From Candidatus Latescibacterota bacterium (GTDB lineage: Bacteria > Latescibacterota > UBA2968 > GCA-2709665), in NCBI GenBank assembly GCA_965208835.1, contig OZ242358.1:1952001-2016000 (forward strand): 64,000 nucleotides of DNA, in the 5' to 3' direction. Position 1 is the first letter of the stretch. Each line of letters opens with the position of its first letter. Below are positions 41,339 through 54,744 of the stretch, piece by piece. Below the pieces are notes generated by a model. That model did not search any database, was not told the DNA's origin, and was given only the letters and a program-made list of their open reading frames with translations. Made by a program: the position numbers and the translations under genes.

Positions 41339-42703
41339 ATGGAGCCACATTCGGACAACGGCAATGCAGGGACCGACCGGAATCCGCAGGTTCTGGGCAA
41401 GAATTTCATGTTTCCGCCTCATGTGATCGACGATATACACATAAAGGCGAATCTGGGTCGGTACCGCATGCGCGGCATGGCGCTTTTCAAGGAGATCCCG
41501 TCGTGGGACGACCTGACGTTTCTGCCAGGCACGCTCACCCGGTTCGTCATCGAGGGGTACCGCGAGAAATGCGAAACCAGGACGGTGCTTGGGCCGATGG
41601 CCGAACGGCCGCTGGTGCTGGATATTCCCATTTACGTCACGGGGATGAGTTTCGGCGCGCTGTCTTACGAAGCGAAGGTGGCGCTGGCGAGAGGTGCCAC
41701 AATGGCGGGCACGGCAACCTGTTCCGGAGAAGGCGGAATGCTGCCCGACGAGCGTCGGTATTCGGAGAAGTGGCTGTACCAGTGCATTCAGTCCCGCTAC
41801 GGGTTCAATCCGCACCACATGCGTCTTGCCGACGGCGTGGAGTTTTTCATCGGCCAGGGGTGCAAGGTGGGCCTCGGCGGGCACCTGATGGGCCAGAAGG
41901 TGACGGACCAGGTGGCTGAAATGCGCTCGTTGCCGGCGGGGATCGACCAGCGCTCGCCGGCCAGGCACCCGGATTGGCTGGGTCCCGACGATCTGGCCCT
42001 GAAGATCGAGGAGATTCGGGAAGCCACCAACTGGCAGATACCCATCCAGCTGAAGCTCGGCGCGGCGCGGGTCTACGACGATGTGAGGATGGCCGCCAAG
42101 ACCGGCCCCGACAGCATCTACATGGACGGGATGGAGGGTTCGACGGGGGCGGGCCCCCACCTGGCTACCGAGGAGACGGGCGTGCCGGGTATCGCGGCCA
42201 TCAGGCAGGCCAGAAAGGCGCTGGACGACGTCGGAAAGACCGGGGAGATTACGCTCGTCTATGCGGGAGGCATTCGCAACGGAGCCGACGTGGCCAAGGC
42301 GCTCGCTCTTGGAGCCGACGCGGTAGCCATCGGCACCGCGGCGATGGTGGCGCTGAATTGCAACAAGGATATTCCGGAGGCGGACTACGAGGGAACGGTG
42401 GGCGTTCCTGCGGGATCCTGCTATCATTGCCATACCGGGCTGTGTCCGGTGGGCGTGGCCACCCAGGATCCGGTACTTCGCAGCCGCCTGGACCCGGACG
42501 AGGCGGCAGAACGGGTGTATAATTTCCTGCATACCCTCGCCATCGAATGCCAGATGTTCGCCAGGGCCTGCGGCAAGACCGACGTCCATTCCCTGGAGCC
42601 GGAGGACCTTGCCGCTCTCACGATGGAAGCATCCGCCATGGCGGAGGTGCCGCTTGCCGGCACCCGCTATACGGTGGGGCATCCCGAGATGAACAGGTAT
42701 TGA
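41339..42703 (+). CDS. mgsC: FMN-binding glutamate synthase family protein, probable N-methylglutamate synthase subunit C
   Basis: GMSFGALS, GEGGM, GQGCK.G.GG.L.GQKV, LPAGIDQRS..RHPDWLGPDDL, CYHCHTG.CPVGVATQD, ACGK; methylamine gene context. Confidence 0.8.
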   Translation: MEPHSDNGNAGTDRNPQVLGKNFMFPPHVIDDIHIKANLGRYRMRGMALFKEIPSWDDLTFLPGTLTRFVIEGYREKCETRTVLGPMAERPLVLDIPIYVTGMSFGALSYEAKVALARGATMAGTATCSGEGGMLPDERRYSEKWLYQCIQSRYGFNPHHMRLADGVEFFIGQGCKVGLGGHLMGQKVTDQVAEMRSLPAGIDQRSPARHPDWLGPDDLALKIEEIREATNWQIPIQLKLGAARVYDDVRMAAKTGPDSIYMDGMEGSTGAGPHLATEETGVPGIAAIRQARKALDDVGKTGEITLVYAGGIRNGADVAKALALGADAVAIGTAAMVALNCNKDIPEADYEGTVGVPAGSCYHCHTGLCPVGVATQDPVLRSRLDPDEAAERVYNFLHTLAIECQMFARACGKTDVHSLEPEDLAALTMEASAMAEVPLAGTRYTVGHPEMNRY

Positions 42704-42804
42704 ACGGCGGGAAGACGCAAGTAGGAAGGAAGAAGGAAGAGGACCGCAACGCACACCACCGGTCTTGCGCTCCACTTTCCGGGACACTGAATCAGGAGAA
42801 TCCG

Positions 42805-43221
42805 ATGGACGAAGCCAGAGACGTGAACTACTACCTGAAGTCCACGGGGCTTGACTCGGACCGCGAGAAGGAAATCGGACAGCACATCGGATACCGGTAC
42901 GACGTGAACCTGCCGCCGGACTATGCGCTCCTGACGCCGTTCCTGAAGGGGTACATCGAGGCGATGGGTTGGCGGGACCTGAACTGGCTGGAAGATGTAC
43001 ATATGGGATACGAAGACGGGAAGCCGGCGGTTTTCGACCGGAATATCAACGGCTGGGTGCTGGTGCCCGAAAATATCGCGCTGCCCGACAACCAGCAGGA
43101 ACGGGACATGATTGCGCGGGAACTGCTCGTCAAGTTCCAGATGTCCGAAGAGCATCCCGTCATGGAGCTTGGCGACGCATACGGAATAAAGCTTGAAGGC
43201 GACGGCGGCGCCCACGGGTAG
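42805..43221 (+). CDS. Small acidic hypothetical protein (138 aa)
   Basis: RBS AGGAG before ATG 42805; protein-like composition; lies between mgsC and the flavoprotein gene. Confidence 0.75.
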   Translation: MDEARDVNYYLKSTGLDSDREKEIGQHIGYRYDVNLPPDYALLTPFLKGYIEAMGWRDLNWLEDVHMGYEDGKPAVFDRNINGWVLVPENIALPDNQQERDMIARELLVKFQMSEEHPVMELGDAYGIKLEGDGGAHG

Positions 43222-43263
43222 GGCGCGGTCGTGTGCGGCATCCTGAAGAAACCGGGAGGCGTT

Positions 43264-44658
43264 ATGAGCAAGTCGAAGATGTGGGGCCCGGATGCGTTCT
43301 GGGGTCTGGACTACGACTGGGACCCTCAGTGGGTATTGACGCACGAACAGAAGGCGCTCCAGGAAAGACTGATCGACCTGTGCCGGACGACGCTGCGGGA
43401 TAACGCGGTTGAAAGCGATCGCGAACTCGTGTTTCCGCGGAAGAACTTCGAGGCGCTGGCTTCGCTGGGCCTCCTGGGATTGAACGTGCCCCGGGATTGG
43501 GGAGGCCTGGGAGAAGACCATACGTGTACTGCGATGGTGGTGGAAACGATCGCGCGTTACGGCTGCGCGAGTACTGCAATGTGTTATACCATGCACGTCG
43601 GTGCCGTCGCCGCCGCCATGTTCCGGGCGCACGGCAATCCGACGCTTCAGGACCTCATGAAACGCCTCGACAGAGACGTGCTGGTGGGTACCCTGTCCTA
43701 TTCGGACCCCGAGACGGGATCCCACTTCTGGTATCCGATATCGTCGGGAGCGGAGCGGGTGGATGGCGGCTGGAAGGTGCGCAAGAAGGCATCGTGGACG
43801 ACGTCCGCGGGTTTTGCCGACTGGTACATCGTGCAGACGACGAGTCCGGATTTCGCCGGCGATTATTCGAATCTGTCGTGTTTTCTCGTCATGGCCGACG
43901 AGGTGAAAGCGGAGCCGTCCCTGTGGGACGGCTTGGGTCTGCGCGGGAATCAGTCCGGCACGCTGGAGGTCGATAACGTCACGATGCCGGAGAGCAGGCT
44001 GGTGGGCCCGGTGGGCGACGGGGCGAATTCCAACGACGAGACTGTGGATCCGTTCTTCCTGTTGTGCTCGTCGGCCTGCTGGAACGGAATCTCACTTGGA
44101 ATGATCGATATCGCCAGGCGGCACACCACCGCCAGGAGGCACGCGGACGTGGGCATGCGGGTGGCGGACTATCCCACGATCCAGGATTACGTGGGCGAGG
44201 CCGTGATCGATACAAACACCTCGCGGTCCTTTGTCTACCTGATGGCCCGGGCGATGGACGACGTCACGAATCAGTGCGACTGGTCGATCCACGAGGACCT
44301 CTCCTGCATGCCGAGGGCTGAGGTGCTGCACTGGATGTGGCAGGTGAAGTTCACCGCGGCGAAGAACGTGGCGAACGTCTCCGACAAGATGCTGCACGCC
44401 TGCGGGGGGACGGGGTACAAGCCCGACCTGGGTATCGAACGGTATCTGCGTGACGGAAAGGCTGGATGGGTGATGGGCCCCACGAATGAGGTCCTGCGCC
44501 AGTTTGTGGGCAAGAGCGTGTTGCTGGGGTTCGATTCACTGGACTATTGGAACCAGTCGGTCAACGAACGGATATTGAGGAACGAACTCAAGAAAATGGA
44601 TGGCGATAGCAAGAAGGAACTCGCGCATCAGCTTCTGGCTGAAACCGACGAGGGGTAA
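43264..44658 (+). CDS. Acyl-CoA dehydrogenase-fold flavoprotein
   Basis: LGLLGL.VP..WGGLG, CASTAMCYTMH, SDPETGS, SWTTS, WDGLGLRGNQS, ACGGTGY, IERYLRD. Confidence 0.85.
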   Translation: MSKSKMWGPDAFWGLDYDWDPQWVLTHEQKALQERLIDLCRTTLRDNAVESDRELVFPRKNFEALASLGLLGLNVPRDWGGLGEDHTCTAMVVETIARYGCASTAMCYTMHVGAVAAAMFRAHGNPTLQDLMKRLDRDVLVGTLSYSDPETGSHFWYPISSGAERVDGGWKVRKKASWTTSAGFADWYIVQTTSPDFAGDYSNLSCFLVMADEVKAEPSLWDGLGLRGNQSGTLEVDNVTMPESRLVGPVGDGANSNDETVDPFFLLCSSACWNGISLGMIDIARRHTTARRHADVGMRVADYPTIQDYVGEAVIDTNTSRSFVYLMARAMDDVTNQCDWSIHEDLSCMPRAEVLHWMWQVKFTAAKNVANVSDKMLHACGGTGYKPDLGIERYLRDGKAGWVMGPTNEVLRQFVGKSVLLGFDSLDYWNQSVNERILRNELKKMDGDSKKELAHQLLAETDEG

Positions 44659-44852
44659 CCTTGATTCGTAATTCTTCGTGGACGTTAAATCGTATATGTG
44701 CAAGCTGATAAAGGCGATTTGAAGGCGGATTACCAGGATACACCAGGCCAATGGACGTGCAGGGAAAAAACGTCCTTCTATACGTCGATAACACCCTGTT
44801 TCGGAGGGTTTTATCGCGTCGCCACGTTGCTGTTTTTTCGAATTGAGGGTGA
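44656..44852. mobile_element. MITE-like repeat family D, copy 2
   Basis: TAACCTTGATTCG ... TTTTTTCGAATTGAGGGTGA; shares GATAAAGGCGATT and GCGGATTACCAGGATACACC with the 54468 copy. Confidence 0.65.
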
Positions 44853-47185
44853 TGCCTGAAGACGTCCAAATGACCGGGACGGGACTGCTTAGATGGACGC
44901 CGGGCAGGGAGCGCTATCGGGTGCCGGGCGGTGGGGCGATCGCCCTGGGGCTGGCACAGGGCGACCGGCTGGCGGTCGTCGACGTGGAAGGGCGCCAGCG
45001 CTGCGAACTGGGCGTATTCGGTCCGGACGGCGGCGCCGATCCCTCCCGGCTGGGTCTCCGTGCTGACAGTGCGATGGAGGGTTTCACGGAGGCGCTCCGG
45101 CGCGGGGACGAGAGCGCGCTGGCGGCCCGCGCGGCCCTGCGGCGAAGGGGCATCGACCTCGCGGGCGCCCGGGCGGTACAGGTCTTCGGGGGAGAGACGG
45201 AAGCCGGCGCCGAAACGTGTTTCAACGCCCGGAGAGACGCCGTTTGCGTGATTGCGGCTCCCGGCGGGCCGATGCGGGTGGATGCCCAGGATCCCCCGAC
45301 GGACCTGGAAGTCGTGGTCAGACGCTCGCGCGTGGAAACGCCGGAAAGCCCCCCGCTGCCCGCGCCATTGGGTGACATGCGCCTGGATCTGGAGGTGGAA
45401 AGGGCGTCGGCCATTGCCTACGAGGTAAAGGCCGGAGAGTTCATCCAGGTGATCGACGTCGCCGGGCGCCAGTGTTCCGATTTTCTGGCGTTCGACGCCC
45501 GGCAGCTGCAGCATGGCGTTGAGCGTGGCCTGGATGGGACCACCACGCGGACCCTCATGGGCGCGGCCTATCCCGGTCCGGGCCTCTTTTCGAAGTTTTA
45601 CGACCAGGATATGCAGCCGCTGGTCGAGGTCGTCCGGGATACGGTAGGGCGCCACGATACGTTTGCGCTTGCGTGCACCGCCAAATATTACGAGGATATG
45701 GGTTATCCGGGTCACGTCAACTGTACGGACAACTTCAACGCGGCATTGGACCCGTATACGATTCAGCCCCGGCGCGGCTGGCCAGCCGTCAATTTCTTTT
45801 ACAATACGAGAATCGACGGGAATAACGTCCTGTTTATGGACGAGCCATGGTCTCGTCCGGGCGACCATGTCCTGCTGAAGGCCTTAACGGACCTGGTCTG
45901 TCTGTCGTCCGCGTGTCCGGACGATATCGATCCGGCCAACGGCTGGGAACCAACGGAGATTCAGGTCCGCGTCTACCCTGAACGGTACCGGTTTTCCAGG
46001 GGGATTGCTCACCGGATGACGGCAGACGCCGAGCCCAGGTTGACGAGGGAGACGGCCTTTCATCAGCGCACGTCCTCCCTGACTCGCCATTACGAGGAAT
46101 ACCGCGGGTTCTGGCTTCCCGCGTGTTTTACAGGCAAGGGCGCCGTCGAGGAATATTTCGCCTGCCGCGAGACCGCGGCGGTGATGGACCTGTCCGCGCT
46201 GCGTAAATTCGAGGTCCTCGGGCCGGACGCGGAGGCGTTGCTGCAGTACACGCTGACGCGGGACGTCCGCCGGCTTACTCCGGGGCAGGTGACTTATTCC
46301 GCGATGTGTTACGAAACCGGCGGCATGCTGGACGACGGCACGTTGTTCCGGTTGGGCGCCGAGAATTTCCGGTGGATCTGCGGCGACGATTACGGGGGCA
46401 CGTGGCTGCGCGAGCAGGCGAGTCGGCTCGGGATGCGGGTATGGGTCAGAAACTCGACCGATCAACTCCATAATCTTGCCGTTCAGGGACCCGGAAGCCG
46501 GGATATCCTTCGCAACGTCATCTGGACGCCTCCGTCTCGCCCGTCCCTGGCCGAACTGGGCTGGTTCCGATTCACGGTGGGCCGAATCGGCAATGGAAAC
46601 GGTCCGGCGATTGTCGTATCCAGGACGGGCTATACGGGCGAACTGGGCTACGAGGTATGGTGCCATCCCAACGATGCGCCCGCGGTGCGGGATGCCATCT
46701 GGGAAGCGGGACAGCGGGATGGCCTGAAACCGTTGGGGCTGGAAGCCCTGGACATGCTGCGGATCGAGGCCGGTCTGGCTTTTGCGGGATGCGAGTTTGA
46801 CGACCGGACGGACCCGTTTGAGGCGGGGATCGGCTTCACGGTTCCGCTCAGGCGCAAGAAAGACGACTTTATCGGCAAAGAGGCGCTGATCCGAAGGCGT
46901 TCGCATCCACAACGCGTGCTGGTCGGGCTGGAGGTATCCGGGAATGAACCGGTCGCCACCGGCGACGACGTTTACGACGGGCGCGGCCGCGTTGGCGTGA
47001 TCACGAGCGGCACCCGCTCGCCGATTCTGGGCAGGAATATCGCGCTTTGCCGTATCGCTACCCGGTACGCCGCGGTCGGCGCCGAAGTCGAGGTGGGTAG
47101 GCTGGACGGCCACCAGAAACGTATTGCCGCGCGGGTGGTGCGGTTTCCGTTTTACGATCCGGACAAAACGCGGCTACGTTCCTGA
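44852..47185 (+). CDS. tdm: Trimethylamine-N-oxide demethylase-like protein (DUF1989 + GcvT aminomethyltransferase)
   Basis: GRQCSDF, HDTFALAC, GHVNC.DNFN, SSACPDDID, then DLSALRKFEV.GPDA, DDGTLFR, SRTGYTGELGYE, LRIEAG, FYDP.K.R. Confidence 0.8.
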   Translation: MPEDVQMTGTGLLRWTPGRERYRVPGGGAIALGLAQGDRLAVVDVEGRQRCELGVFGPDGGADPSRLGLRADSAMEGFTEALRRGDESALAARAALRRRGIDLAGARAVQVFGGETEAGAETCFNARRDAVCVIAAPGGPMRVDAQDPPTDLEVVVRRSRVETPESPPLPAPLGDMRLDLEVERASAIAYEVKAGEFIQVIDVAGRQCSDFLAFDARQLQHGVERGLDGTTTRTLMGAAYPGPGLFSKFYDQDMQPLVEVVRDTVGRHDTFALACTAKYYEDMGYPGHVNCTDNFNAALDPYTIQPRRGWPAVNFFYNTRIDGNNVLFMDEPWSRPGDHVLLKALTDLVCLSSACPDDIDPANGWEPTEIQVRVYPERYRFSRGIAHRMTADAEPRLTRETAFHQRTSSLTRHYEEYRGFWLPACFTGKGAVEEYFACRETAAVMDLSALRKFEVLGPDAEALLQYTLTRDVRRLTPGQVTYSAMCYETGGMLDDGTLFRLGAENFRWICGDDYGGTWLREQASRLGMRVWVRNSTDQLHNLAVQGPGSRDILRNVIWTPPSRPSLAELGWFRFTVGRIGNGNGPAIVVSRTGYTGELGYEVWCHPNDAPAVRDAIWEAGQRDGLKPLGLEALDMLRIEAGLAFAGCEFDDRTDPFEAGIGFTVPLRRKKDDFIGKEALIRRRSHPQRVLVGLEVSGNEPVATGDDVYDGRGRVGVITSGTRSPILGRNIALCRIATRYAAVGAEVEVGRLDGHQKRIAARVVRFPFYDPDKTRLRS

Positions 47186-47288
47186 TTACAGCTTCCAGGA
47201 TCCGCAATGCTTCTCCCGCCGACGTCGTACCCACGATAGTGCCCTGAAGCTTCGCGTTGGACGGCGCTCTCATTGAGAGGGTATCGGA

Positions 47289-47780
47289 ATGGCCTTCGAC
47301 CCGATGGAGCAACGTCGGATTATGGGTTGTTTTGCAACCGGCGTCACCGTTGTCACCACGGTTGCAGGCGGCGAATACAGGGGAATGACAGCCAATGCCG
47401 TGACCTCGCTTTCGCTTGATCCCCCTCTGGTCATGGTATCCGTTGACAAGGGGGCGCAGATGCACGCCCATTTGACGGAAAGCCGGTATTTCGCATTGAA
47501 TATCCTCAGCGAGGATCAGGAAGCGGTTTCAACGCAGTTTGCCAGACCGGGTCCCAAGGACTTCTCGAACGTGGCCACGACGACGGTCCGGACCGGTGCC
47601 CCCGTCCTCACGGACGCACTGGGCCACGTGGAATGTCTGCTGGCCGACGTGTTGCAGGCCGGCGACCACGATATTTTCGTTGGCAAAATTGTTGCGGGCG
47701 ATGCGGGTTCAGGTCGTCCGCTTCTGTTTTACCAGGGAGAGTATCGCCGGATTTCGGACGGAACCGCTTCTCAGATCTGA
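47289..47780 (+). CDS. Flavin reductase (HpaC/DszD-like)
   Basis: FATGVTVVTT, GMTANAVTSLSLDPPL, FALNIL, GDHDIFVG, PLLFY.G.Y. Confidence 0.92.
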   Translation: MAFDPMEQRRIMGCFATGVTVVTTVAGGEYRGMTANAVTSLSLDPPLVMVSVDKGAQMHAHLTESRYFALNILSEDQEAVSTQFARPGPKDFSNVATTTVRTGAPVLTDALGHVECLLADVLQAGDHDIFVGKIVAGDAGSGRPLLFYQGEYRRISDGTASQI

Positions 47781-47833
47781 CGGACACCTGTCGCGGAGTC
47801 GCGCATTCTTCAGGTTCAATACGGAGGGATTAA

Positions 47834-49228
47834 ATGGACAACGAACTCAGTGCATTGACCGTGGTGTTTACGGAATTCTATTACTGGATTTGTATCGTGC
47901 TCATGTTCCTCATCCACGTCGGCTTCTGTCTGTACGAAGTCGGCGTGTCCAGGAGGAAGAATATGATGCACACCCTTATGAAGAACGCGATGCTGATTCC
48001 TCTGGTCACCATTACGTTCTATTTTTTCGGGTGGTGGATCTATTTCGCCGTGCAGAACGGCCCCGGGATTACGGGCGGGCTGATCGAAGCCGCGTGGGCT
48101 ACGCCCTGGAATGAGCTGATGGGTACGCATATGGGTGGCAAGCCGCACGGCGGCGGGCTGACAGGAGACGATACGGCGCTATGGGCGCGGCTGAACGGCG
48201 TGTTCTGGGCGGCGTTTCTGCTGTTCTCATGGACGGCGGGATCGATTCTCTCGGGTGCGGTCATCGAACGCATCCGATCCGGCGCGTTCTGGATTTTCGC
48301 GGTGCTGGTGGGATCGGTTACCTGGGTGATCGACGCGGCGTGGGGCTGGTCCGCCGACGGCTGGATGGTTCAGGTACTGGGATACCACGACGCATACGCC
48401 TCCGGTGTGATCCACGCGATCAGCGGCGGGTCCGCGCTGGCGATCCTCTACCACCTGGGGCCGCGAATCGGCAGATTCAGGTCCGACGGTTCTCCCAGAA
48501 ACTTCCCGCCTCAAAACACCTGGCTGGTCGTTATCGGTCTGTTCCTGATCTATACGGGGTTCTGGGGCTTTTACGCGGCCTGCAACGTGCCCATCATGGA
48601 CGTGGACCCCGCCAGCGACCGGGCGTTCTTTTCTGCCACCACGATTTACCTGACGCCCACGACGCTCAGCGCCATCACGTTCAACTTTCTGATGTCGCTC
48701 GCCGGCGGATTGATCATGGGGTATTTCGTTTCCAAGGGCGACCCTTACTGGACCTTCTCCGGTGGACTGGCCGGCATCATCACGGCATCGGCCGGCAATG
48801 ATCTGTACCATCCGATGCAGGCGCTGCTCATCGGCGCATTCGGCACGTTCTGCATGTACAAGTTGCACAACTGGGTCGAGAAACGGTTCAGGATCGACGA
48901 TGCGGTGGGCGCCGTGGCGGTACATGGCTATGCCGGGGTTATCGGGGTGATTGTCGCGGGCTTCGTACTCTGGGGATATCCGGGCGCCAATCCCGCGTAC
49001 GCTCCGATTACGCCGTGGGGACAGACGCTCGGCGCCGTCATCATGTTCTTTGTGCTGGGCTTTCTGCCCTGCTACGTCCTGGGGGCGATCCTCAAGAAAC
49101 TCGGCATTCTGCGCATTCCGGCGCGGATTGAAATTGCGGGTCTGGATCATGTGGCCATTCAGAACGAAAATGCGGATGCGGACGAACTCGCTCAGGCCGA
49201 AATCGACGAAGCGCGGGCAGGCAGCTAG
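47834..49228 (+). CDS. amt: Ammonium/methylammonium transporter (Amt family)
   Basis: About 11 TM segments, SGAVIER, VIH, LGPRIGRF, GFWGF, GLAGII, DDAVGAVAVHG. Confidence 0.9.
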   Translation: MDNELSALTVVFTEFYYWICIVLMFLIHVGFCLYEVGVSRRKNMMHTLMKNAMLIPLVTITFYFFGWWIYFAVQNGPGITGGLIEAAWATPWNELMGTHMGGKPHGGGLTGDDTALWARLNGVFWAAFLLFSWTAGSILSGAVIERIRSGAFWIFAVLVGSVTWVIDAAWGWSADGWMVQVLGYHDAYASGVIHAISGGSALAILYHLGPRIGRFRSDGSPRNFPPQNTWLVVIGLFLIYTGFWGFYAACNVPIMDVDPASDRAFFSATTIYLTPTTLSAITFNFLMSLAGGLIMGYFVSKGDPYWTFSGGLAGIITASAGNDLYHPMQALLIGAFGTFCMYKLHNWVEKRFRIDDAVGAVAVHGYAGVIGVIVAGFVLWGYPGANPAYAPITPWGQTLGAVIMFFVLGFLPCYVLGAILKKLGILRIPARIEIAGLDHVAIQNENADADELAQAEIDEARAGS

Positions 49229-49393
49229 TGTTCTGTCCCGGAAATAAGTTGCCAAAACTCGACCGTCGAGTCGCCTGGCTCGCAAGGCGCCCGAGCGCAG
49301 CCGACCTGCGTAAGGTCGGCGAGCGAGGTGAACATAGCGAGACGGGATGAATCGGCTGTCGAATGGTGAGGAATTTTTGGGACAGGACACAAG
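49225..49393. mobile_element. MITE-like repeat family C, copy 2; its CTAG contains the amt stop codon
   Basis: Near-identical to 11262-11430. Confidence 0.85.
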
Positions 49394-49460
49394 TGTTTTG
49401 TTCCGGAAGCAGGTCGCCTGAATCGGCGGTCGTTTGATCGGATGTTTTCGGGACAGGACA
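49394..49460. repeat. Short family C derivative in tandem with copy 2
   Basis: TGTTTTGTTCCGGAAG ... TTTTCGGGACAGGACA. Confidence 0.6.
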
Positions 49461-49476
49461 TTGATAGAAAGGATCT

Positions 49477-51162
49477 ATGCGCGAGCACGACGGTTTGCCG
49501 GACATCGAGATTGCGAGGCGGGCACGCCTGCACCATATCGGCCAGGTCGCGCAGGAATTGGGCGTGCCGGAAGACCAGCTGGAGGTCTACGGCAGGTACA
49601 AGGCCAAGGTCTCGATGGATTTTTACGACAGCCTTGCCGGAAATGCCGCCGGCAAGCTGGTATTGGTCTCGGCGATCAATCCCACGCCTTCCGGCGAGGG
49701 CAAGACAACCACGACCGTGGGCCTGGGCGACGCCCTTAACCGGCTGGGAAAGCGCACGGCAATCTGTCTCAGAGAGCCTTCATTGGGCCCCTGTTTCGGG
49801 ATGAAGGGTGGCGCTGCCGGCGGCGGGATGTCCCAGGTAGCGCCGATGGAGGACATCAACCTGCATTTTACGGGCGATATCCACGCAATTGGCGTCGCCC
49901 ACAACCTGCTCTCGGCAGCGATCGACAACCACGTCCATCACCGGAACAGGCTGGATATCGATCCCCGGCGCGTCCTGTGGAAGCGCGTGATGGACATGAA
50001 CGACCGCGCGCTTCGGGAAATCGTCGTCGGTCTGGGAGGTACGGGGAACTCCTATCCACGTGAATCGGGATTTGAAATCACGGTCGCATCGGAAGTGATG
50101 GCTGTTTTTTGCCTTTCGGAGTCGCTCGACGAGCTTCGGGAGCGGCTGGGCCGGATCATTGTGGCGTATACGCGGTCCAATGAACCGGTTACGGCGGCGG
50201 ACCTCAATGTGCACGGTGCGATGGCCGTGCTGCTGAGAGACGCGCTGATGCCGAACCTGGTGCAGACCCTGGAGAACAACCCGGCAATCGTTCACGGGGG
50301 TCCGTTCGCCAATATCGCGCACGGTTGCAATTCGGTGATCGCGACCAAGCTGGCCATGCGACTGTCCGAATACACCGTAACCGAAGCCGGATTCGGTGCG
50401 GATCTGGGCGCGGAGAAATTTCTGAATATCAAGTGCCGTCAGGCCGGCATCCGCCCGGACGTGGTGGTGCTGGTGGCGACGGTCCGGGGGCTGAAATACC
50501 ATGGCGGGATGTCACCCAGGCGGCTGTCGGACGCCAACCCGGCCGCGCTGAAAAAGGGTCTCGTGAATCTGAGGAAGCATATCGAAAACATCCGGCGTTT
50601 CGGCCTCACAGCTGTCGTGGCCGTGAACCGGTTTCTTTCCGACACGTCCGGTGAGATCGCTCTGATTCAGGACAGCTGCGCCGATATGGATCTGCCGATC
50701 GTTCCATCGGATCACTGGGCGAAGGGGGGGAGCGGCGCGGAGGCGCTTGCGCGAAGGGTTGTCGAGGCCGCGGAAACGGCTTCCTGCAGTTTCAAGTTTC
50801 TCTATCCCGATAATCTGCGGTTGTGGGACAAGGCCAGGATCGTCGCCCGGGAAGTCTACGGCGCCGACGATATTATGGGGGACAAACGGTTGAGAGCCCG
50901 GTTCGCAAAGCTCGAGGAAGCGGGGCACGGAAAGCTTCCGGTCTGTATGGCCAAGACCCAGTATTCGCTCTCGACGGATCCGGGATTGAAGGGCAGACCG
51001 AGGGGTTTCGACGTGCCCATCCGCGACGTGAGGGTGTCCGCCGGGGCAGGTTTTGTGGTCGTGTATACCGGAGACGTCATGACAATGCCGGGGCTTCCGC
51101 GCAGGCCGTCTGCCGAGGCGATCGATTATGATGAAGCCGGACACACGGTCGGTCTGTTCTGA
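49477..51162 (+). CDS. fhs: Formate--tetrahydrofolate ligase
   Basis: [72 protein letters not shown]. Confidence 0.97.
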
Positions 51163-51197
51163 AAGCGGAACCTGTATCGATGTCAGCCACGGACATT

Positions 51198-51405
51198 TCG
51201 TCTCTTCGTCTTCTCGCTTTGCGAAACTACGAATGTACGAAACTACGAAAAAGCTGGTACATCACTCGTCTTTTCATAGTCTCGTATTCTCGTTTCTTCG
51301 CGTTATTCGTTGTCTGGTTTTCGGTTCTTGGTTTTTTGTCGTTTCGTAGTCTCGTAGTCTCGTAGTCTCGTATTCTCGCTTCTTCGCGTATTTCGTCGTT
51401 TCTGG
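51198..51405. repeat. Degenerate octamer tandem repeats in both orientations
   Basis: (ACGAAACT)-like units near 51222-51252 and (TCTCGTAG)n near 51279-51300 and 51342-51378. Confidence 0.7.
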
Positions 51406-51440
51406 CGTAATTTTCCGGGCAACTTCAAAGGAGGAGGCAG

Positions 51441-51671
51441 ATGAGAACGGGTTTGATCGAAACGTGGGCGGGGAATCCGGCCGACGTGGGTCCGATGTAT
51501 CCCTTTGTCGGGTCCGAGGTTCCTCTATTTGTGGTTTGCATTGTTTTATGGATTGCGTACACGATCTGGCAGATCAAACACGAGAATGCAACTTATGCTG
51601 CCGAGCTGGATCAGTTGGCCGAGGCAGAATCGCCCGCATCGGCGACGGATACTGAGAACAGGAATTCCTAA
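51441..51671 (+). CDS. Small single-TM membrane protein
   Basis: Strong RBS AAGGAGGAGG; GPMYPFVGSE followed by a hydrophobic helix and WQI..EN. Confidence 0.75.
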   Translation: MRTGLIETWAGNPADVGPMYPFVGSEVPLFVVCIVLWIAYTIWQIKHENATYAAELDQLAEAESPASATDTENRNS

Positions 51672-51697
51672 CATGGATTTAGTGGGGAGAACTGACG

Positions 51698-53032
51698 ATG
51701 ACGCTGGACCAGGTTAAAGAATTCGTAGCCGCGAATGGAATCGACTTCTTTCTGTGTTCGTTTGTGGAGATGAGCGGGATGCCGAAGGCCAAGGTGGTGC
51801 CCGTCACCCACCTCGACGACATGGCCTCGGAAGGCGCGGGGTTCGCAGGTTTCGCGGCGGGCAATATGGGGCAGGGCCCGCACGATTCCGATATGATGAA
51901 CATACCGGACTTCAACTCGATGACCGTATTGCCTTGGCGCAAGAATACGGCGTGGGTTGCGGGCAACATCCAGGTCGAGGGGGAGCCGTTCGGATATTGT
52001 CCGCGGACGATCCTGCAGCGGCAGCTCGCAAGGGCGGAAGCGAAGGGATATCGCTTGAATCTGGGCGTGGAAGCGGAATTCATCCTCCTTAAAAAGGATG
52101 ATCAGGGGAACTATGCGCTGGCCGATCCGATGGATACCCTGGAGAAGCCCTGTTACGATCTCGTCACCCTGCATCGCAACCTGGACGTGATGACCACGCT
52201 CATCGGGTATATGCAGGAACTGGGATGGGAACCCTATGCAAACGACCACGAAGACGCCAATTGCCAGTTCGAGATCAACTGGACCTATTCCGACGCGCTG
52301 ACGACCGCCGACCGGCAGACGTTCTTCAGATGGATGGTGAAGGTGAACGCGGAGCGGCTCGGATACCACGCGACGTTCATGCCGAAGCCGTTTTCTCACC
52401 TCACAGGAAGCGGCGCGCACTATCACATGAGCCTGTGGGATCCGGAGAACAGGGCCAACCTGTTTCTCGACGACGGGGATGAAAACGGTCTGTCGAAGGA
52501 GGCTTACTGGTTCATGGCGGGCATCCTCAACCACGCGAAGGCGATTTCCGCAGTGTCCGCGCCCCTGGTGAACAGCTACAAACGCCTCACGAGGGGGGCT
52601 CCCCGATCGGGCGCGTCCTGGGCGCCGATCTGTATCACCTACGGCGGATCGAACCGGACGCAGATGATCCGAATCCCCGACGCGGGCCGTATCGAAAACC
52701 GGGCGATCGATGGCGCCGCAAATCCATACCTGACGACTGCGGCAATGCTGGCGGCCGGGCTCGACGGCATCGAAAACCGTATGGAGCCGGGCGAACGCAA
52801 TGAGGGCAATCTCTATGAGGTGCCCGAAAGCGAATTGAGCGCGCGGGGCATCGACCTGCTCCCGGGTACCCTGGCCGAGGCGGCCGATCACCTGGCGTCC
52901 GATGACGTGCTCCGGGAGGCGCTCGGAACGGAATATGCGGACTATTACGTGCAGGTGAAACGCGAAGAATGGGCGGAGTACCATCTGCACGTGGACCAGT
53001 GGGAACGCGAACGGTATCTGCCGGTATATTAG
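51698..53032 (+). CDS. gmaS: GlnT-type glutamine synthetase family protein, probable gamma-glutamylmethylamide synthetase
   Basis: PKAKVVP, GAGFAGFA, KPCYD, NDHEDANCQFEIN, ATFMPKPF..TGSG.H, NSYKR, SGASWAP, NRTQMIRIP; cluster context. Confidence 0.82.
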   Translation: MTLDQVKEFVAANGIDFFLCSFVEMSGMPKAKVVPVTHLDDMASEGAGFAGFAAGNMGQGPHDSDMMNIPDFNSMTVLPWRKNTAWVAGNIQVEGEPFGYCPRTILQRQLARAEAKGYRLNLGVEAEFILLKKDDQGNYALADPMDTLEKPCYDLVTLHRNLDVMTTLIGYMQELGWEPYANDHEDANCQFEINWTYSDALTTADRQTFFRWMVKVNAERLGYHATFMPKPFSHLTGSGAHYHMSLWDPENRANLFLDDGDENGLSKEAYWFMAGILNHAKAISAVSAPLVNSYKRLTRGAPRSGASWAPICITYGGSNRTQMIRIPDAGRIENRAIDGAANPYLTTAAMLAAGLDGIENRMEPGERNEGNLYEVPESELSARGIDLLPGTLAEAADHLASDDVLREALGTEYADYYVQVKREEWAEYHLHVDQWERERYLPVY

Positions 53033-53126
53033 GGATTGTCGTCGGGAATCGTCGAAATCCGCACCGCCGCGTGGGCGCCCGCCTGTCGCCAACCGTGTGA
53101 TGTCGAAAACCTGACTGGATGGGTCT

Positions 53127-54470
53127 ATGGAGAACGCAGCCAGACGGCCGGTTCGAGAGGCGCCGCGGGGCGTCGGAGGCTTGCTGCGGAATATCGGACC
53201 GGGCGTGGTCGTGTCGGGTTCGGTGGTCGGGTCCGGCGAGTTGCTGGTGACCACCCGAATGGGGGCGGAGGTGGGCTTCGTCTTCCTCTGGGGGGTGATC
53301 CTGGCATGTCTGGTCAAATTTTTCATCCAGCTTGAACTCGGGCGCCAGTGTGTCCTGCACAACAGCACGACAATTCAGGTGCTGGACCGCGTGCCCGGCG
53401 TGCGTTGGTCGAATACCTCCTGGGCGGCCTGGCTGTGCGTGCTGGGTTATTTCTCGGTGATGATTGCCGTGATCGGCATACTGGGGTCCGTGGCGGGACT
53501 GATGGTGACCCTTCTTCCCGGTGTCCCGTACAATATCTGGGCCATTCTGGTTTTCGCGGCAATCTCGATTCTGCTGTACCGGGGCCTCTACGCCGACCTG
53601 GAGCGGATGATCACGATCCTGGTCGCGGGCTTCAGCCTGGTTGTCATCGGATCCTTGATTGGGATGCAGGCCACGCCATACGCCGTGGGAGGCGCCGAGG
53701 TGCTGTCGGGATTTCGCTTCACGTTGCCCGCGGACGGGGCGTTCGTCGCCATGGCCGTGATGGGGTCCGTAGGCGCGACGGCGGTGGAGTTGTTCATGTA
53801 TCCCTACTGGGTGCGGGAGAAAGGGTATGCGGATTTTGTGGGGCCGAGGGAGGATACGCCGGAGTGGCGCGCGCGATATCGGGGCTGGATGCGTGTGCTG
53901 AAAACCGATGCGCTGGTGTGCACCGGCATCGCATTGGTGATTACCTGCGCCTACTATCTGCTGGGCGCCTCGATTCTGAAGAAGCTGAACGTGGTCCCGC
54001 AGGGCATGGAGGTCGTGGAACAGGTCTCACTGATCTTTACGCTAAGCATCGGAACCTGGACAAAGAACGTGTTCATGTTCGGCGCGTTCTGCACGCTGTT
54101 TTCCACGCTGCTCGTTTTCACGGCCAGTTCCGGGCGCATCAGCGTGGATTTTCTCAGGCAGACGGGCGTCGCCGGACTCGATAACGAAGCGGTGCGTCTT
54201 CGGCTGCTGCGGTCGCTGCAGATCGCCTTCCCGTTTCTGTGGCTCTGCGTGACCATTGCAACCCCCGATACCCCGCTTGCGCTGGTGCTGATCGGGGCAA
54301 ACGCCAACAACCTGCTGTTGATTCCAATGGCCTACGGCGTGGTCCACCTGGCGATGCGCGCCGCGGACGCGGAACGGATGTCCGTATGGACGGAACTCGC
54401 GTTGCTCTTGACGGTCTGGGCGATCGTCAACTTTACCGCGGTCAATCTGTATTTGAACTGGACGCGTTAA
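53127..54470 (+). CDS. Nramp-like (APC superfamily) transporter
   Basis: IGPG......VGSGEL, many TM segments, Y.YW..EKG, LFST. Lacks the canonical DPGN metal motif. Confidence 0.75.
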   Translation: MENAARRPVREAPRGVGGLLRNIGPGVVVSGSVVGSGELLVTTRMGAEVGFVFLWGVILACLVKFFIQLELGRQCVLHNSTTIQVLDRVPGVRWSNTSWAAWLCVLGYFSVMIAVIGILGSVAGLMVTLLPGVPYNIWAILVFAAISILLYRGLYADLERMITILVAGFSLVVIGSLIGMQATPYAVGGAEVLSGFRFTLPADGAFVAMAVMGSVGATAVELFMYPYWVREKGYADFVGPREDTPEWRARYRGWMRVLKTDALVCTGIALVITCAYYLLGASILKKLNVVPQGMEVVEQVSLIFTLSIGTWTKNVFMFGAFCTLFSTLLVFTASSGRISVDFLRQTGVAGLDNEAVRLRLLRSLQIAFPFLWLCVTIATPDTPLALVLIGANANNLLLIPMAYGVVHLAMRAADAERMSVWTELALLLTVWAIVNFTAVNLYLNWTR

Positions 54471-54714: not shown

Positions 54715-54744
54715 AGGGCGGCCGGCAACGGCCGCCCTTCTTAT
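54715..54744. terminator. Intrinsic terminator-like hairpin
   Basis: AGGGCGGCCG-GCAA-CGGCCGCCCT followed by TCTTATT, between convergent genes. Confidence 0.65.

Follow-up and report, generated by a model that had tools for sequence, protein, structure and literature searches.

Two genes in a 64,000-nucleotide stretch of a Candidatus Latescibacterota bacterium genome (contig OZ242358.1; this whole stretch is called the window here) likely encode a new trimethylamine (TMA)-oxidising enzyme pair that occurs in several bacterial phyla. One is a 464-amino-acid (aa) protein with the acyl-CoA dehydrogenase (ACAD) fold, encoded at 43264-44658, and the other is a 163-aa HpaC-type NAD(P)H:flavin reductase, encoded at 47289-47780. 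Between them lies the gene for Tdm, the trimethylamine N-oxide (TMAO) demethylase (44843-47185), and all three genes are on the plus strand. Judging from the sequences and their context, we lean, with slightly more confidence than doubt, towards the pair being a two-component TMA N-oxygenase that depends on reduced flavin, supplies Tdm with TMAO and serves as a non-homologous substitute for the TMA monooxygenase Tmm. TMA, TMAO and dimethylamine (DMA) rank among the major forms of volatile organic nitrogen, and the tmm gene is what environmental surveys use to count TMA oxidisers. If the pair is a further TMA monooxygenase without homology to Tmm, such surveys would miss a whole guild of TMA consumers, and the known reactions of ACAD-fold oxygenases would be extended to tertiary-amine N-oxygenation. 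A June 2026 paper (PMC13390433) continues to describe the aerobic pathway as consisting of Tmm, Tdm, DmmDABC, GmaS, MgsABC and MgdABCD.

The ACAD gene starts with an ATG at 43264, with a GGGAGG Shine-Dalgarno sequence 5 nt upstream, and this start yields 464 aa, the same length as the homologues. The protein contains the Pfam domains PF02771, PF02770 and PF00441, and its AF2 model (pLDDT 93.6, pTM 0.91) has the three-domain ACAD fold. When the model was compared with the PDB using Foldseek, target-normalised TM-scores with solved ACADs were 0.87-0.92. True ACADs and the "flavin-containing monooxygenase" 5z8t scored alike, and therefore the fold cannot tell a dehydrogenase from an oxygenase. 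In an alignment to solved ACADs, Gly405 (VMGPTNEV) aligns with the catalytic Glu of the "IYEGT"/YEG motif. Glu was found at this column in none of the 53 rows of alignment A1, an alignment that extends to relatives of the Rv1679/FadE16 type at 30% identity. Pro263 occupies what we take to be the alternative catalytic position, on helix G, of IVD and LCAD. Because the catalytic Glu, which the preliminary description of this DNA had proposed to look for, is absent, the ACAD-fold protein is, by its sequence, very probably not an acyl-CoA dehydrogenase. The invariant residues specific to the family include Trp402, Trp273, Tyr157 and Asp262, which might form a cation-binding pocket.

Gene identities were assigned with curated profiles (Pfam, NCBIfam), each scored against its own cut-off. 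The best NCBIfam match of the ACAD-fold protein was Rv1679/FadE16 (NF049984) with 218.4 bits, which is under the cut-off of 600. None of the models for group D oxygenases was reached: DszC gave 68.1 bits (cut-off 850), SfnB 70.3 (430.9), HsaA 63.4 (450) and the HpaH oxygenase 47.2 (650). The protein also has no FMO-type domain (NF058570, PF00743), so it is likened to Tmm by role and not by membership. The assignment as an oxygenase comes from the lost catalytic base and the gene context, not from homology to a known oxygenase. Full-text literature searches found no description of the ACAD family as an amine oxygenase, and a literature search on Latescibacteria returned nothing relevant to it.

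Scanning species-representative genomes for the ACAD family gave 363 encoding stretches, and the best 80 of these 363 loci, at 72-97% identity, were studied. Open reading frames (ORFs) in GC-rich related loci were called with a third-position GC filter, since picking the longest ORF had given antisense ORFs. Identity to the ACAD-fold protein is 75-97% among its best 120 database relatives, all of them annotated as acyl-CoA dehydrogenase; their source names include Latescibacteria, Acidobacteria, Alphaproteobacteria, Gammaproteobacteria and Udaeobacter. Members of the family are frequently found in Latescibacterota, Gemmatimonadota, Acidobacteriota, Verrucomicrobiota, and soil and freshwater Alphaproteobacteria.

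Throughout this range, the ACAD family is tied to Tdm. Of the 80 loci, 56, drawn from at least five phyla, have tdm beside the ACAD gene, and in 28 of these the gap is no longer than 300 bp. Since the pairing recurs in so many loci and phyla, the arrangement is not due to chance. Where both flanks extended to 5 kb or more, Tdm was present in 43 of 50 loci. Whole-genome searches for Tdm, Tmm, HODM/DmmC and s138 (a 138-aa protein encoded just upstream of the ACAD gene, described below) were conducted on the genomes behind 50 of the 80 ACAD loci, and Tdm scored over its curated cut-off in 47 of these 50. An even sample of 401 Alphaproteobacteria was used as the baseline. Genomes with a Tdm match at E<=1e-200 were counted as Tdm+, which gave 33 Tdm+ and 368 Tdm- genomes. 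The ACAD family was found in 9 of the 33 Tdm+ genomes vs 1 of the 368 Tdm- genomes (p=5e-10). The linkage to tdm that the preliminary description had suggested checking by co-occurrence and synteny is therefore borne out at the level of both genomes (47/50) and loci (56/80).

Fusions are found as well. A search among longer proteins returned five metagenomic proteins (P0391-P0395), and all five join ACAD domains to DUF1989 and/or GcvT. In P0391 (1220 aa) both halves are full-length: residues 4-457 are 63% identical to the ACAD-fold protein of the window, and residues 485-1219 are 60% identical to its Tdm. Each fusion comes from one contig, and a sequencing or gene-calling artefact is possible in individual cases. 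For the reductase, a PF01613 protein is encoded in 48 of the 80 related loci, and in 20 of these its gene is no more than 300 bp from the ACAD gene. The nearest relatives outside the family, P0242 (52% identical, 770 aa), P0249 and P0254, have the same fold fused to FAD_binding_6 and NAD_binding_1 domains. These are representative proteins of sister clades that are 37-52% identical to the ACAD-fold protein. Their fusion to FNR-type reductase domains argues that the ACAD fold receives reducing power from NAD(P)H. The genetic linkage to a reductase thus extends well beyond the window, in line with the pairing proposed earlier for the ACAD-fold protein.

To which step of the pathway the pair belongs was approached through the distribution of Tmm and of the heme-dependent DMA monooxygenase DmmDABC. 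The accessions of the Tmm, DmmA and DmmC models were chosen via the reference cluster on Rhizobium etli p42e. The source genome is 5.18 Mb in one contig and 97.8% complete, and it is the basis for statements of absence from the whole genome. Its search with the PF00743, NF058570, PF11927 and NF041259 models gave no match, and tblastn of the R. etli Tmm, DmmA, DmmB and DmmC proteins against it found nothing. The absence of tmm and dmm, which had been claimed for the window, therefore extends to the entire genome. Among the 33 Tdm+ Alphaproteobacteria, Tmm was found in none of the 9 genomes with the ACAD family vs 15 of the 24 without it (Fisher p=0.0014). HODM/DmmC was found in 2 of the 9 vs 8 of the 24 (p=0.69). 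These counts make the ACAD family complementary to Tmm, not to Dmm. Mutual exclusivity with tmm and dmm had been put forward as a check in the preliminary description, and only the Tmm part of this is seen. In the 50 genomes with an ACAD locus, Tmm scored over the cut-off in 5 and HODM/DmmC in 5, and no genome had both.

Two Xanthobacter loci (L073 and L076) agree with this in their gene order. In these, dmmD is followed by the ACAD gene, the reductase gene, tdm, a permease gene, dmmA, dmmB and dmmC, and a Tmm search of both Xanthobacter genomes gave no match. The Xanthobacter cluster is thus an otherwise canonical tdm-dmmDABC cluster with the ACAD/reductase pair in the place of tmm. Xanthobacter flavus, a cultured bacterium, has the pair, Tdm and DmmDABC without Tmm; Dongia deserti and Virgifigura deserti are further sources of the pair. 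The earlier proposal was that the ACAD-fold protein and the reductase catalyse a missing amine oxidation or demethylation step. In this form, N-oxidation of TMA fits the data better and demethylation of DMA fits less.

The proposed substrate, reaction of the flavin and order of steps are inferred, as follows. The HpaC-type reductase would reduce free FMN or FAD with NAD(P)H. The ACAD-fold protein would take up the reduced flavin, and its reaction with O2 would form a C4a-hydroperoxyflavin, whose distal oxygen would be attacked by the lone pair of TMA to give TMAO. The adjacent Tdm would then convert TMAO to DMA and a tetrahydrofolate-bound C1 unit, with the latter being dealt with by Fhs and related enzymes. 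Monomethylamine would be handled by GmaS together with MgsABC and MgdABCD, which are encoded at a second locus, and Amt would move (methyl)ammonium.

The product DMA also needs a route in genomes that have no Dmm, and the better candidate for this step is not the ACAD/reductase pair but a six-gene module that includes s138 (42805-43221, plus strand). The protein s138 matched no family in Pfam or NCBIfam, no PDB fold at E<=0.001, and gave no usable match in a protein atlas search. It has at least 8000 relatives, at approximately 75% identity. Its AF2 model (pLDDT 70) has a confident core, while the first 34 residues, which are conserved or invariant, are unmodelled. The preliminary description had offered this protein as a possible third component of the oxygenase, and we examined and rejected this candidate. 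The s138 gene adjoins a gene for an MgsC-like protein in 24 of 26 loci; in one of the exceptions two genes intervene, and in the other the locus ends. This adjacency is kept even when the two genes are kilobases away from the ACAD gene on the opposite strand. In addition, s138 is present in 16 Tdm+ genomes of the alphaproteobacterial sample that have no member of the ACAD family. Because it is tied to the MgsC-like gene and occurs in Tdm+ genomes without the ACAD family, s138 is not an oxygenase component. Complex prediction for the MgsC-like protein and s138 gave no answer (score 0.00 in two runs) and is neutral on whether they bind.

The module is made up of a DAO-family flavoprotein, a long GS-like ligase, a GATase-like protein, a GXGXG protein, the MgsC-like FMN/Fe-S protein and s138. 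The ligase matches TIGR03105 with only 300 bits. In the window, the MgsC-like protein with its glutamate-synthase domain (cluster c3; 41339-42703, plus strand; PF01645, 302.9 bits) is 52% identical to R. etli MgsC, while the other copy that this genome encodes reaches 56%. The window protein is a paralogue of canonical MgsC and the partner of s138. The earlier label "mgsC-like" is therefore right for a PF01645 protein, but this is not the canonical mgsC, since the canonical mgsABC set lies elsewhere in the genome. The source genome (G000:C1) splits the module. The ligase, GATase-like and GXGXG genes are at 3178406-3181702 and the DAO gene is at 2645150-2646487. The first three are part of a second methylamine locus, at 3178406-3190183 on the minus strand, which has a canonical mgsABC and an mgdABCD-like set of the sarcosine-oxidase type, then the ligase, GATase-like and GXGXG genes, 1.2 Mb from their partners in the window (the MgsC-like gene and s138). 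In four other loci (L083-L086), from two SAR11-sized genomes and two others, the s138 module lies beside tdm and apart from canonical mgsABC-gmaS. A protein of approximately 190 aa without a family (c20) accompanies the module in 11 loci and is absent from the source genome. The cross-phylum identity of the MgsC-like protein (83-98%), like that of the ACAD-fold protein (72-97%), is far above that of usual metabolic enzymes, which hints at a recent spread by horizontal transfer, at very strong constraint, or at the two together.

The distribution of s138 is complementary to that of Dmm. It was found in 23 of the 33 Tdm+ Alphaproteobacteria vs 11 of the 368 Tdm- ones. Among the 33, one genome had both s138 and a strong HODM match, 22 had s138 only, 7 had HODM only and 3 had neither (p=0.0002). 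In the 50 genomes with an ACAD locus, s138 was present in 47, of which 2 were HODM+. The three without s138 were all HODM+, and they are none other than the Xanthobacter-type genomes whose cluster includes dmmDABC. The s138 module is, by these patterns, a better candidate than the ACAD/reductase pair for a Dmm-independent DMA step, and by elimination this strengthens the assignment of the pair to TMA. It is speculation on our part that the module works via gamma-glutamyl-dimethylamide or N,N-dimethylglutamate; a literature search for a glutamyl-dimethylamide route found no paper using such terms in the context of dimethylamine. The module bears on how DMA is disposed of without dmmDABC, a question posed by Lidbury et al. 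2017 (PMC5520151), who noted that many bacteria with tmm and tdm lack dmmDABC. A broader proposal, which we put forward only tentatively, is that the window and the locus at 3.18 Mb together make up a full route from TMA to ammonia without Tmm or Dmm. The ACAD/reductase pair would make TMAO, the six-gene, glutamate-linked module would remove DMA, and the same module would be the missing DMA step of SAR11-type marine bacteria.

Several observations weigh against a TMA N-oxygenase. By sequence, profile search and fold, the closest solved structures are those of true ACADs and not of group D oxygenases, and every NCBIfam oxygenase model is far under its cut-off for the ACAD-fold protein. Of the 50 full-flank loci, 19 lack a reductase gene inside 10 kb. 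Bona fide Tmm is also held by the 5 of the 50 ACAD-bearing genomes mentioned above. At three loci (L042, L067 and L081) the cluster itself has a gene for a true Tmm between the ACAD gene and tdm, with 73-80% identity to Tmm of R. etli, and thus the ACAD family and Tmm are not strictly alternative. Nine of the 33 Tdm+ Alphaproteobacteria have neither Tmm nor the ACAD family. The ACAD relative in the single Tdm- genome counted above is 61% identical (G098:C1:2654838-2656223). A 382-aa GcvT-like gene lies approximately 11 kb away from it, and this relative may be a paralogue that acts on another substrate. Neither adjacency nor fusion to Tdm reveals whether the pair works upstream of Tdm, with TMA as its substrate, or downstream, with DMA. 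Finally, the co-occurrence counts carry no correction for common ancestry, and incomplete metagenome-assembled genomes are numerous among those counted.

The main rival is that the same two-component oxygenase acts on DMA, by N-hydroxylation or by oxidative demethylation to methylamine, and so replaces DmmDABC. The source genome, with Tdm and GmaS but no Dmm, could be read in this way, as could the absence of HODM/DmmC from 45 of the 50 ACAD-bearing genomes. A true Tmm in the same cluster at three loci would leave DMA as the open step, and fusion to Tdm suits the product of Tdm equally to its substrate. We nevertheless find this unlikely. HODM is not excluded by the ACAD family among Tdm+ Alphaproteobacteria (2/9 vs 8/24, p=0.69), the Xanthobacter clusters combine the pair with a full dmmDABC and no tmm, and the complementarity with Dmm belongs to the s138 module instead. 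Hydroxylation of a methyl C-H bond is also untypical for a flavin hydroperoxide, according to textbook knowledge. Another possible explanation is a broad N-oxygenase for TMA and DMA, where Tdm demethylates both N-oxides and the ACAD/Tdm combination strips two methyl groups in turn. The very tight tie to Tdm, fusion included, agrees with this, and so does the finding that none of the 50 genomes has Tmm and HODM together while five have one and five the other. However, Tdm would also have to accept dimethylhydroxylamine, and the s138 module, which would be redundant, is retained in 47 of the 50 genomes; we regard this explanation as improbable.

The substrate could instead be another small N- or S-methylated compound, such as a different tertiary amine or dimethyl sulfide (DMS), which would feed the pathway or be co-metabolised. 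ACAD-fold enzymes of this kind exist, in that Dms1-3 are described as oxidising DMS and dimethyl sulfoxide (DMSO) in a passage of PMC13352529. The relative in the genome without Tdm and an ABC importer encoded head-to-head with the ACAD gene in approximately 10 alphaproteobacterial loci would also be in keeping with another substrate. The near-confinement of the family to Tdm+ genomes (9/33 vs 1/368), together with the Tdm fusion, points to TMAO or DMA chemistry instead and makes a different compound rather unlikely. An ordinary acyl-CoA dehydrogenase that stands beside amine genes by chance is hardly credible. The Pfam ACAD domains, the nearest solved structures and the name in public records all favour it, but the catalytic Glu is gone in all 53 aligned relatives, and the family is linked or fused to Tdm and to reductases across several phyla. 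Thus, oxygenation of TMA ahead of Tdm is the reading that we prefer.

The importer just mentioned is of the branched-chain type, with a Peripla_BP_6 binding protein and two BPD_transp_2 permeases, and was seen at L022, L024, L025, L029, L035, L038, L041, L051, L060 and L068. It may bring in the substrate of the oxygenase. In about a dozen alphaproteobacterial loci, a trio of fatty-acid-desaturase-like, aromatic-amino-acid-lyase-like and cold-shock-domain genes lies upstream of the reductase and ACAD genes (L028, L036, L042, L045, L046, L052-L056 and other Dongiaceae-type loci).

The genes of the window discussed above belong to an unbroken run of co-oriented genes with short gaps, at 41339-54470 on the plus strand. 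The run starts with the MgsC-like gene, s138 and the ACAD gene. Tdm, which follows, scores 1235 bits with NF053776 (cut-off 1100) and has the DUF1989 and GcvT architecture, with PF09347, PF01571 and PF08669 all present; its start codon is the TTG at 44843 or a nearby ATG. The reductase scores 153 bits with PF01613 (cut-off 27) and is under the cut-off for all of the specific NCBIfam equivalogs (HpaH reductase, HsaB and StyB). Next are an Amt-family (methyl)ammonium transporter (47834-49228; PF00909, 193.5 bits) and Fhs, the formate-tetrahydrofolate ligase (49477-51162; NF010030, 866 bits vs 652). A 76-aa small protein is encoded upstream of gmaS (51441-51671); it belongs to a conserved ORF cluster (c6) found in 20 related loci, and the tested cluster member has no Pfam family. 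It is followed by a GmaS/GlnT-type type III glutamine synthetase (51698-53032; TIGR03105, 592.9 bits vs 469.6), which is 43% identical to R. etli GlnT, and, last in the row, an Nramp-like membrane transporter (53127-54470; NF037982, 101 bits vs 50). The gene row given in the preliminary description, from the mgsC-like gene to the transporter, is therefore present in full on the plus strand, and curated models uphold its labels. Past the Nramp-like gene there is a terminator-like hairpin at 54715-54738. In a promoter and terminator scan, overall counts were no higher than in shuffles.

Compared with known systems, the ACAD/reductase pair is closest in role to Tmm. The proposed reaction (TMA, O2 and reductant to TMAO) is identical, the place in the cluster beside tdm is the same (in R. 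etli p42e for Tmm and in Xanthobacter for the pair), and the two are distributed in a mutually exclusive manner among Tdm+ Alphaproteobacteria. Tmm differs in being a class B, single-component FAD/NADPH enzyme with the FMO fold, whereas the ACAD-fold protein has a separate flavin reductase and no homology to it. DmmDABC (PF11927, NF041259) is alike in that it fills another gap in the same pathway. It has no homology to the pair, and its distribution is complementary to that of the s138 module, not that of the ACAD family. The Rv1679/FadE16 family is the best-scoring curated family and part of a wider group with a VM(G/A)P motif instead of YEG, but the match of 218 bits is far under the cut-off of 600. 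We know of no function for this family. The group D two-component monooxygenases (DszC, SfnB, HsaA and the HpaH oxygenase) share with the ACAD-fold protein the ACAD fold without the catalytic base, the nearby HpaC-type reductase and, as the proposed chemistry, the oxygenation of a heteroatom. They are distant, with PDB E-values of 1e-10 to 1e-14 vs 1e-30 for true ACADs. The distant PDB matches include 3mxl, 4zxv and 3m9v, which are presumably amino-sugar N-oxygenases of the nitrososynthase type. Isobutylamine N-hydroxylase is likewise a group D N-oxygenase; to our knowledge, no known group D member acts on TMA. The Dms1-3 enzymes of Acinetobacter baylyi ADP1, likened to the ACAD family by description, differ in having a sulfur substrate and a sulfur-assimilation context. 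As described in PMC13352529, these group D, ACAD-fold enzymes work with the reductase MsuE to convert DMS to DMSO, which Tmm can do as well. They set a precedent for an ACAD-fold enzyme that relies on a reductase and oxygenates a small methylated compound at its heteroatom.

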